From assembly GCA_964351495.1 (NCBI GenBank), contig CAYGOC010000006.1, positions 19,365-83,364 of the forward strand: DNA of 64,000 nt, read 5' to 3'. Both the position numbers and the translations under genes were made by a program. A model generated the notes under the pieces. That model had not been told where the DNA came from, ran no database searches, and saw only the letters and a program-made list of their open reading frames with translations. This document shows positions 10,271 to 15,034 of this stretch, one piece after another. Each line of letters begins with the position of its first letter. Within the stretch, counting starts at the first letter, position 1. This DNA comes from an uncultured bacterium. Lineage in GTDB: Bacteria; Chlamydiota; Chlamydiia; Chlamydiales; SM23-39.

Positions 10271-13200
10271 TTAGCGGTCGTTTTCTCTTTTGATATGTTC
10301 CATAGCCTCATCAAACTCTTTTTCTAGTCTAGGAGAGCCTGCCGCATCTCGGAAAAGATCCTCTTGCTCTTCAGTAACTTTTTGGATGTCTTCATAAGAG
10401 TGGATAATGTGAGGACGAATAAAGACTACAATATTCGTTCTGGAATCTCCTTTACTAGCTACCGAAAAGGCAGAGGCTAGGTAAGGGAGGCCTCCTAAAC
10501 AAGGGATCCCTTTTTTTCTTTCAGTCTTGGTAATATCTACCATGCCACTTAGCACCAAAAAACTCTCATTGGGCACATGTACGGTAGTACTTAAGTTGGT
10601 TTTGCTGGTTGTAATACCACTTACCCCTTGATTGCTGATGATAGAGGAGGTGCTTTGTGTTTCTCCTACAGCATCTGTTGCAATGGAACTGGAGTTCATC
10701 TGAATATCTAAGGTCACAACATCAGAATTTCCTAAAACAGGGGTGATAACAAGGTTCATCCCTATATCTCTATATTCTAGGTTTTGATTGGTTACTGTAG
10801 TTTGCCCCTCATTTTTAACAAAAGAGCCCGCATAGGGGACGTTTCTTCCTATAAATATGGTAGCTTGTTTGTTATCTTGGGTCAAAAGCTTGGGAGTCAT
10901 TACAATAGTGGTCTCTTCGTCATTTTGAAGCGCCCTTAAAAGAGATCCCATAGATAAAAAAGAACGCCCTTTATGTAAGATGATATCGCCAATTACCCCA
11001 AGTTCAAAGCTTGGTTGAACGGTTGGAATCAATGTGGGAGCAGGAGAAGTAGAACCATTTACCGTATCAAAATTAGAAAAAAAGCTCTGTGTTGTATCGG
11101 AGCTGTTTTGCAGTTTCCCGGAGAATTTATCCCGGTGCTTAAAGTTACTGGTCCAGTCAAGTCCAAAGGTTAATATATTGGTAAGAGAAGTTTCAATTAC
11201 CAAAACTTCTATAAAAACCTGTTTTAAAGGAATATCTAGGTTTTTTATCAACTCTTTTAATCTTGTCAAAGTCTCTTGCTGTCCTGTACATAAAAGAGAG
11301 TTAGTAACTTCTAGCCACTGAATTGATTGGATCGATGACAAAAGTTCCTTATTTATAGGACTTTTATTATTTTCCAGATCTTTGGCTATTTGTTTTAAGG
11401 CATTTTGGATCTCAGTTCCTTTGTGGTATTGAAGTTTGTACACTAAAAAGCTGGTGTTATCAATAGGTTGAATAGAACCATCTGAAAAAGGTTTCCCCTC
11501 TTGAGGGGTGTCAAAAAGTTGCAGGAGATCTTTTACTTGAGCCAAAGCCTCTTTATTGCCGGTAAATACAAGACTCTTTGTAGACGTTACCCACTTCATA
11601 GAGCGGATTGTTTGATAAAGTCCCGGATCGTAAAGACCTTGCTCTTTTAGGTTCTCTACAAAGTCTAAAAGCATCTGCTCTAAATTATTCCCGGATACAT
11701 AAACCGGTTTATAGACAAAAAAAGAGGAAGGAACATCTCCTTTAGACTGATCTGCTAAAGAAGGAATATCAAATTTTTCTACTAAATCACGTACCTTCGC
11801 AAGAGAGGGATCAGAGCCTGTAAACACTAAAGAGTGTGTTTCAGAAACAAAACGAACGCTATTTAAAGCAGCTAAAAACTCTAAATCAGAAGAATTCGAT
11901 TTTTTTAAGTCTTCTGAGATATCTTTTATGTAAGCTAGCATCCTTTCCCCAGAGGTAAACTTTAACTTGTACAGAAAAAAGCCCGATCTTTGTAGAGCCT
12001 CTTTTTGTTTTCCGGTGGGAATATCTACGTCTTTTATAAGTCCTTCAATTTTTTGGAGAGTTATCTGAGAACCTGTAAAAATAACAGAATTGGTCTCTGA
12101 GCTAAACTTCATACTGGTAATAGTATTTAAAAGAGATGAGTCGGTAAGCCCTCCCTGTTTTAAGGTTTTAGCTATGTCTAAAAGAGATTTTTGCAGTTGT
12201 TGCGGAGTCAAATACTGAGGTTTATACATGTAAAATTCACTATGAACAGAGCCCGATTTTCTAGGAATATCGTATTGGGCAATTAGCGCTTTTACCTCAT
12301 CTATAGCGCCCGAATCTCCTGTTAAAAGAATAGAATTGGTCTCTTTAATCCATTTAATATTTTCAATTACTTGAATTACCTTGGTGTTTCCCATTCCGGA
12401 GGCTTTCATGTTCTTAGCAAAACGCTCCAAATCCTCTTCAATAGTATCCCCCGGAGTGTTTTCCAGTTTGTACAGAAAGTATCCTTGCGCTTTCCTAGCA
12501 TCGGAGGGCTCATCAAAGTCTTTTAAAAGAGCTTCCAATCTATCTAATACATTTTGAGCTCCTGAAAACATGTAAGAGTGAGAATCTTGAATCCACTTCC
12601 TATCAGAAATAATTTCGATTAAAGGTTGCTCTCCCAGGCCGGAGGTTTTTAAATTTTTTACTAAAGAAGAGAGGTAAGCATCCATCTGCTTTTGAGAAAC
12701 ATACTTTAATGGATACAAAATAAACGTGCTTTTTTCAGGAGCCCCTTTCTGAGTTGAAGTGTCAAAACCTGAGATTAACTCTTGTACCTTGTTAAGAGAG
12801 TCTTCATTGCCCTTAAACATAAAAGAATGAGACTCAGAAATCCATTTCATCGATTCAATCGTATTATAGAGATTGTTTTGCTCTATATCAGACTTATCTA
12901 AATGGGACCCTACTTGGTTTAAGTAAGCTTCTAACCTTTCTTTAGATACATTTTGCAAAGGATATAAAAGAAATTTAGGCTTAGAAGCTGCAAAAGCCCT
13001 ATCCACTGGGATATCAAAAGCAGTTAAAAGCTCTTTAATCCGATTTAAAGAAGTTTGTGTGCCGGAAAACATAAAAGAATGGGACTCGGGAATCCACTTT
13101 ATAGTTTGAATGGCATCTACTAAGCTCTCTTCTTTTAACCCTTTTTTAGAAAGGTTATCTGCTACTTTTTTTAAGTAGTCTTCTACACTTTTTTCAGGAA

Positions 13201-15034: not shown

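Follow-up and report, generated by a model that had tools for sequence, protein, structure and literature searches.

How many ring-building domains can a secretin carry, and what becomes of the secretion machine around it when their number changes? The question is raised by sctC (cdsC-type), the gene for a giant secretin of 1587 amino acids (aa) at 10271..15034 of a 64,000-nucleotide (nt) stretch of DNA, hereafter the window, from an uncultured member of the Chlamydiota (contig CAYGOC010000006.1); the window features given below lie on the minus strand, as sctC does, unless the plus strand is stated. Secretins are textbook channels with a fixed complement of two to four N-rings. [quoted passage not shown]

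Domain architecture of the secretin

The reading frame of sctC is unbroken over 1587 codons, and a protein identical to its product is present in NCBI (P0001). A Sec-type signal peptide, read from the sequence (aa 1-25, ending in SVFA before NE; 14960..15034), is followed by an N0 domain (aa 31-102; 14729..14944), which is matched by Pfam PF21305 over aa 31-97 with 35.6 bits in a scan of the whole protein, modelled by AlphaFold at a predicted local distance difference test score (pLDDT) of 85-93, and likened by Foldseek to XcpQ/GspD N0-N1-N2. N1 (aa 126-184; 14483..14659) is a canonical beta-alpha-beta-beta-alpha domain according to a Secretin_N match of 42 bits and the secondary structure of the model. 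Residues 190-252 (14279..14467) had no Pfam match in a fragment scan; they are modelled as beta-alpha-beta-beta-alpha at a pLDDT of about 83-89, and since the crystal structures of the XcpQ and GspD N0-N1-N2 blocks ranked at the top of the Foldseek search with the N-terminal model (E about 4e-13), they are assigned to N2.

The stretch that follows had been parsed by eye, in a sequence-only reading of the window, into 12 consecutive units of ~83 aa lying between the N-terminal domains and the secretin core (11231-14236, that is, aa 267-1268). The count held: anchor motifs repeat every 81-91 aa, and a hidden Markov model (HMM) built from the 12 hand-cut units found exactly 12 full-length copies (aa 267-1277, 85-110 bits each), besides a weak and partial match to N1. 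Pfam Secretin_N (PF03958) covers 12 stretches of the whole protein with a summed 303 bits, and when the units were scanned as lone ~83-aa fragments it was the best family for all 12 (E 3e-10 to 1.4e-3), eight of them reaching the gathering score and units 4, 6, 7 and 8 scoring 19-24 bits, so that the proposed kinship with Secretin_N applies to each unit individually. The placement, on the other hand, needed amendment, in that N2 had been overlooked and one of the 12 units is not an insertion. GspD chains in the PDB that comprise N3 and the secretin domain align to SctC from aa 1193 on, and unit 12 (aa 1194-1275; 11210..11455), which is the best-conserved unit and invariant in position across species, is therefore the canonical N3 beside the core. 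Units 1-11 (aa 267-1193; 11456..14236), delimited by the unit HMM, the Secretin_N matches of each unit and the models, are the eleven extra N-type domains. The secretin core (aa 1276-1587, with C-terminal helices; 10271..11209) contains the PF00263 Secretin domain (aa 1368-1544, E 9.5e-35) and was also recognized by Foldseek; among the PDB secretins that match SctC, GspD 15-mers are the nearest (E down to 8e-33). The layout is signal peptide, N0-N1-N2-[11 extra units]-N3-secretin core, amounting to 14 N-type domains plus N0, eleven more than the GspD-type N0-N1-N2-N3.

The fold that had been expected of the units is also the one predicted for them. Two monomer fragments were modelled with AlphaFold. 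In the first (aa 25-520, from a 42-sequence alignment, mean pLDDT 82.7), units 1-3 appear as beta-alpha-alpha'-beta-beta-alpha, an N-domain fold that includes one additional short helix; in the second (aa 1017-1587), which resembles the chains of GspD and InvG solved by cryo-electron microscopy (cryo-EM), units 10-12 have a pLDDT of about 80-88. Every N-type domain modelled stands at a pLDDT of about 80-90, and the top Foldseek matches of both models are exclusively secretin N-domains and secretins.

Distribution and unit turnover

A word-indexed protein search (E<=1e-20) returned 202 homologues, the best 120 of which measure 1274-2754 aa and carry 8-28 units. This type of secretin is encoded by 251 genomes among the GTDB species representatives; the best 80 of these 251 loci all come from metagenome-assembled genomes of the Chlamydiota type, of which a few are labelled Verrucomicrobia, and those of their genes that are complete have 6-14 units. 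An exhaustive HMMER search in which only N3 and the core served as the query (E<=1e-30) gave 444 cluster representatives, whose multi-unit members have 5-23 units, and over all searches the unit number ranges from 5 to 28. Judging from these sequences, the array is the normal state in most Chlamydiota outside the Chlamydiaceae, and its unit number is variable. It had been foreseen that the feature would be real but not novel if all orthologues shared the 12-module architecture; the array is indeed widespread, but its count is not fixed and the architecture is apparently undescribed in the literature searched.

Turnover among the units is uneven. When each unit of 74 secretins was assigned to the best-matching unit of the window, units 1-2 and 8-12 proved to be positional orthologues almost everywhere, and copy changes clustered in units 3-7 (aa 434-849; 12488..13735), with patterns such as 555, 4444 and 5656; in the giants with 21 and 28 units, most of the units are unit-3-like copies. 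A spacer held between two ends of fixed function would be expected to change in this way.

Some observations on individual carriers may be added. Five loci (L004, L036, L050, L066 and L080) combine a chlamydia-type sctC operon with a public label of Verrucomicrobia or Verrucomicrobiota, and carriers so labelled are probably Chlamydiota that were mis-binned or mis-classified. At 28 units in 2754 aa, the longest array is that of L081 (an SRR27787835 contig, sctC at 10001-18265), where sctC does not adjoin sctQ and sctP; lepA and an unannotated gene of 398 aa lie upstream, and the operon linkage is broken. There is also a second kind of giant secretin, which has only two Secretin_N stretches and an N0 that starts at aa 1251-1649 (P0238, 2401 aa; P0228, 1980 aa; P0231, P0233, P0260 and P0267), its extension lying upstream of N0, where CdsC has its ~250-aa 'Chlamydia-specific' domain. 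With N-unit arrays in the one kind and huge pre-N0 extensions in the other, giant secretin size therefore arose by two independent routes.

Covariation with the ruler

The candidate ruler of the window (sctP/cdsP-like, 444 aa; 16323..17657) is encoded between sctO and sctQ, in the position of the published cdsP, and is homologous to the products of genes at the SctP position elsewhere; it consists of a long low-complexity region rich in K, E, S and P and a C-terminal globular domain. That domain gave a sub-threshold match to PF02120 (Flg_hook; E about 0.04) in four of 20 members and no sequence match in the PDB, and a profile search with it returned a single fragment, the word index being ineffective for a domain so short and divergent. 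At least as the published work on Yersinia YscP presents it, the length of the injectisome needle is set by the SctP ruler and is proportional to the length of that ruler.

The initial sample comprised 31 loci in which the sctO-sctP-sctQ-sctC region is complete. In these, SctP length rises with the number of units in SctC (r=0.62, p=2e-4, slope 22.8 aa per unit), and the correlation is closer in phylogenetically independent contrasts (PIC; r=0.81, p=3e-8); SctQ and SctO show no significant correlation with unit number in these loci, whether raw or in contrasts. The 31-locus regression was fixed first and then applied to three loci retrieved later, for which it predicted a SctP of 688 aa at 21 units (L082; observed 700 aa), 597 aa at 17 units (L087; observed 616 aa) and 529 aa at 14 units (L089; observed 554 aa). 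All three out-of-sample predictions were thus off by at most 25 aa, and the proteins concerned are homologous to the SctP of the window, with a P/K/E/S/T-rich region followed by the conserved C-terminal domain. For the resulting 34 loci the relation is r=0.82 (p=3e-9, slope 23.9 aa per unit, intercept 200), and r=0.89 in contrasts (p=2e-12, slope 28.1 aa per unit), with no trend for SctO (r=-0.11) and a marginal one for SctQ (PIC r=0.35, p=0.04, slope 1.7 aa per unit). Left out of the regression were a 23-unit protein and one of 18 units whose contigs end just upstream of sctC, L086 (18 units), whose sctP lies beyond the 10-kb flank, and L081 (28 units), for which the regression value is ~850 aa. 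The C. trachomatis pair, with canonical N-domains and a CdsP of 283 aa, falls at the low end of the same trend. The remark in the sequence-only reading that the neighbouring SctP is also long turns out to concern part of the same phenomenon.

The lineages that carry 17-21 units have an additional, short SctP-like gene between sctQ and the long sctP (L082:6377-7033, 218 aa; L087:6363-7100, 245 aa), and its product matches the C-terminal half of the SctP of the window (E 2e-15 and 1e-6, respectively).

A proposed periplasmic conduit and its alternatives

The account of these data that we consider probable is that stacked N-domain rings form an extended periplasmic conduit of adjustable length. 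Tandem duplication of a ring-building N-domain would have extended the periplasmic part of chlamydial SctC/CdsC; 12-15 copies of SctC would assemble with one ring for each N-type domain, as in all characterised secretins, and the 14 rings would stack into a tube several times longer than that in known injectisomes. The N0-N1-N2 block would dock on the inner-membrane SctD/SctJ rings and N3 would lie under the gate, with the middle units serving as spacers. Because the needle must grow through the longer tube, SctP would have been lengthened in step, by ~24-28 residues per added unit, which would keep the needle exposed, and gain and loss of middle units would tune the length over evolution. The implied basal body here would measure roughly 55-90 nm, compared with the 34 nm of C. 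trachomatis; scaling by total ruler length gives the lower figure, and the upper follows if each of the 11 extra units adds about 5 nm. A longer stacked neck had been suggested from the sequence, and the covariation with SctP lends that suggestion indirect quantitative support; the physical stacking is what we infer. As a general proposition for environmental chlamydiae, namely that the trans-periplasmic length of the injectisome is modular by N-ring number (5 to ~28) and that the ruler co-evolves at a fixed increment, the idea is put forward more tentatively, as quite conceivable but on balance a little doubtful.

The increment itself can be set against a known structure. The value for Yersinia YscP is reportedly 1.9 Å per residue, and at this value 24-28 residues per unit would correspond to about 4.5-5.3 nm per unit, a conversion borrowed from Yersinia. 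The PilQ of Thermus fits six rings and the secretin domain into 35 nm, or roughly 4 nm per ring, and by this analogy the agreement would be rough but physically sensible.

Several points, of which the borrowed conversion is one, weigh against the stacked conduit. The relation between SctC and SctP is correlative, its residual standard deviation is about 50 aa, and there are deviating loci in which 10-11 units accompany a SctP of 324-343 aa. The SctP start codons were called mechanically, the tree behind the contrasts is a simple neighbour-joining tree of the secretin C-terminus, and the identification of SctP, made from synteny, architecture and sub-threshold similarity to the FliK family, is itself putative. 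The AlphaFold models are monomers whose interdomain orientation is uninformative, with predicted template modelling scores (pTM) of 0.37-0.49. Lastly, the periplasmic distances implied by a linear stack, ~55-90 nm here and well above 100 nm for 21-28 units, would be extraordinary for cells as large as these.

The last two of these points speak for the main rival, which we regard as unlikely: the units would not stack but would form a beads-on-string tether, fold back in a concentric or zig-zag arrangement, or serve in the periplasm as a scaffold or as an anchor to the cell wall, and the injectisome would not be proportionally longer. No fixed interdomain geometry emerges from the monomer models, and the lengths implied for 21-28 units look implausibly large; moreover, the N-rings of Thermus PilQ and the basal bodies of chlamydiae are known to be flexible or compressible, and the conserved identity of units 1-2 and 8-11 could reflect the binding of specific partners. 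Such an array nevertheless does not predict a roughly linear covariation with SctP, nor the three successful length predictions, nor that SctO should fail to covary and SctQ do so only marginally, and every characterised secretin domain with the N-type fold forms a ring. A partial fold-back, with fewer nm per unit, may be compatible with the data.

Less probable still, and in our view improbable outright, is that the SctC-SctP covariation is a by-product of repeat and low-complexity expansion or of relaxed streamlining, with no mechanical link between the two proteins. SctC is repeat-rich and SctP of low complexity, both being prone to expansion, and SctQ does trend marginally upward when the giants are counted in (the contrasts given above). 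The SctC units, however, are ancient, divergent and under strong purifying selection rather than of the slippage type, the relation survives independent contrasts, the slopes for SctQ and SctO are about 15-fold smaller or zero, and the SctP slope converts to a physically sensible ring height.

If the stacked-conduit account is true, the variable arrays would constitute a natural length series, an evolutionary experiment on the ruler model with basal bodies of about 40 to >100 nm, and would point to an unrecognised, very wide or specialised periplasmic architecture in environmental chlamydiae. Variation in ring number between close relatives makes the matching of injectisome length to envelope width testable, and the joint lengthening of SctC and SctP raises the question of whether what SctP measures is the whole way from the export gate to the tip of the needle. 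The stacked conduit further predicts unusually long basal bodies that should be easily visible by cryo-electron tomography in cultured amoeba symbionts.

The T3SS operon and the identity of the machine

By sequence, the protein could be mistaken for the secretin of a type II secretion system (T2SS). It scores 446 bits with the NCBIfam model TIGR02517 (GspD; cut-off 351), a total summed over seven repeated stretches, and 126.4 bits with TIGR02516 (SctC), below the cut-off of 238.45, and its nearest PDB sequences and folds are those of T2SS GspD. A score below the SctC cut-off is to be expected, because chlamydial T3SS secretins came separately from a T2SS-like ancestor; all chlamydial T3SSs are published as using a secretin recruited from the T2SS/phage branch.

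The gene context is unambiguous. Upstream of sctC, on the same strand, lie genes for SctD, a CesT chaperone, a TPR chaperone, and SctL, N, O, P and Q, and this synteny is kept in dozens of relatives. sctD (21076..22929) is of the CdsD type, with two FHA/Yop-YscD_cpl stretches and the CdsD PD1, PD2 and C-terminal domains found by Pfam; sctO (YscO-like), sctN (the T3SS ATPase) and the gene at the sctL position, likewise assigned by Pfam, occupy 17687..20128; and the sctQ-like gene (344 aa; 15283..16317) has a weak FliMN_C match, its homologues elsewhere carrying SepQ_C/FliMN_C. On its other flank sctC is followed by an orphan open reading frame (ORF), a conserved 313-aa gene, yidD and a sulfate permease gene, and no T2SS genes (gspC/E/F/G) were seen among its neighbours in the window. 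With sctC standing as the last gene of a sctL-N-O-P-Q-(pkn5)-C operon here and in dozens of relatives, the probability that the protein is really a T2SS GspD is very small, and that assignment was rejected on the T3SS context. The original designation as SctC was right, applied to a protein that is GspD-like in sequence and ancestry.

In many relatives, as in Chlamydia, a gene for a Pkn5-like Ser/Thr kinase lies between sctQ and sctC (L082:8238-9842, L087:8265-9815, L089:7502-8971 and L086:561-2126). The window has no such gene between the two, the spacing being only 248 bp (15035-15282); across loci the shortest such spacing is about 20 bp and the longest about 5 kb.

Age and constraint of the units

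Pairs of units are 22-45% identical in protein and at most 58% identical in DNA, and Tandem Repeats Finder reported no array with a period near 250 bp in sctC, which confirms, as had been thought from inspection of the window, that the units are old, divergent duplications and not recent DNA repeats. An orthologue of 1586 aa with 12 units, 83% identical, is encoded on an independent chromosome-level assembly of 1.42 Mb (L001). Each unit is 74-93% identical between the two proteins, with N0, N1 and the core in the same range, and the nonsynonymous divergence (dN) is about 0.1 in all regions (about 0.11 for units 1-11); the synonymous divergence (dS) is saturated, so that dN/dS for this pair is a bound only. 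Low dN beside saturated dS in all regions argues for purifying selection on all units, and on this comparison of genes every unit is functional.

Misassembly or pseudogene decay as an explanation of the array has a practically negligible probability and was rejected. Tandem repeats are a classic cause of misassembly, and the genome behind this 96-kb contig is probably a draft; against this, the copies differ too much in DNA to be collapsed or expanded in assembly, the Tandem Repeats Finder result is negative, the 12-unit count recurs in the independent assembly, the frame of 1587 codons is intact, homologues number in the hundreds, and dN is far below dS.

Comparison with known systems

The closest system by descent is CdsC of C. 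trachomatis (CT674), which is orthologous, belongs to the same T2SS-like secretin lineage and has a matching cdsN-O-P-Q ... cdsC neighbourhood. With 921 aa, CdsC has been called atypically large, and the largest T3SS secretin, and is part of an elongated basal body of 34 nm; what enlarges it is a unique domain, hydrophilic and ~200-250 aa long, that precedes N0. Relatives of 925-931 aa share this Chlamydiaceae layout, with N0 from aa 172-221, two Secretin_N stretches and no array. The SctC of the window, in contrast, has its N0 at aa 31, right after the signal peptide, and therefore lacks the 'Chlamydia-specific N-terminal domain'; it carries the 11 extra N-type units instead, and its SctP has 444 aa where CdsP has 283.

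The best mechanistic analogue is PilQ of Thermus thermophilus, the only characterised secretin with an expanded stack of N-rings, in which six rings (N1-N5 being beta-alpha-beta-beta-alpha domains), called unusual by the authors of that work, form a 35-nm complex read as spanning an unusually wide periplasm. PilQ nevertheless serves a type IV pilus machine, belongs to another secretin lineage and has six rings in 757 aa, against 15 (N0 plus 14) here, and it has no known ruler partner and no known copy-number variation between species.

Closest by sequence and fold are GspD, XcpQ and PulD, whose N0-N1-N2 and N3-secretin blocks align directly with those of SctC; GspD, however, at about 650 aa, comprises exactly N0-N3 and operates together with a pseudopilus, whereas the SctC of the window has 11 units between N2 and N3 and lies in a T3SS operon. 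InvG, YscC and MxiD play the same role in the same type of machine, and their secretin core and N0-N1 folds are recognisable, but they were recruited separately, have 560-610 aa with N0, N1 and N3 only, and show similarity at E 3e-9 or weaker. In numbers of N-type domains, the SctC of the window has 14, GspD three and InvG/YscC two.

In the literature searched, we found no account of chlamydial secretins with tandemly expanded N-domains, nor of covariation with the ruler, and the database names of these proteins are generic (e.g., 'secretin N-terminal domain-containing protein'). The protein family is an ordinary one, already represented in databases, and the mechanical reading is one that we infer rather than have observed; with the family and the machine known, it is the 14-domain architecture of variable copy number and its coupling to the ruler that appear to be new.

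Neighbouring genes

Downstream of sctC, the conserved 313-aa gene (6630-7571) encodes a protein without a Pfam match, whose N-terminus is lipoprotein-like (MNLKAFLALSLVCFSSC), whose middle is helical and whose C-terminal segments are hydrophobic; yidD (6194-6640), identified by Pfam, follows it. In 75 of 78 loci a homologue of the 313-aa protein (E 1e-82 to 1e-115) starts no more than ~160 nt from the sctC stop codon, often overlapping it (e.g., L082:16794-17753 and L089:15330-16280). The protein is a candidate for an assembly factor of the secretin or for a pilotin; the T3SS operons of C. trachomatis are stated to have no known pilotin (Nans 2015).

In the window, the 313-aa gene and yidD are separated from sctC by an orphan ORF of 583 aa on the plus strand (8431-10182), for which Pfam gave no match and the sctC strand of the other 80 loci no homologue. 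The ORF lies within the block of lowest GC content in the window (0.32), and it looks like a lineage-specific insertion that has parted sctC from its usually adjoining partners.

Six ORFs in a row, all in the same orientation (292, 398, 185, 544, 305 and 138 aa), occupy 23472-29146, upstream of the T3SS genes. They had no Pfam match at E<=0.01 or better, and they may encode chlamydia-specific T3SS components, effectors or translocators.

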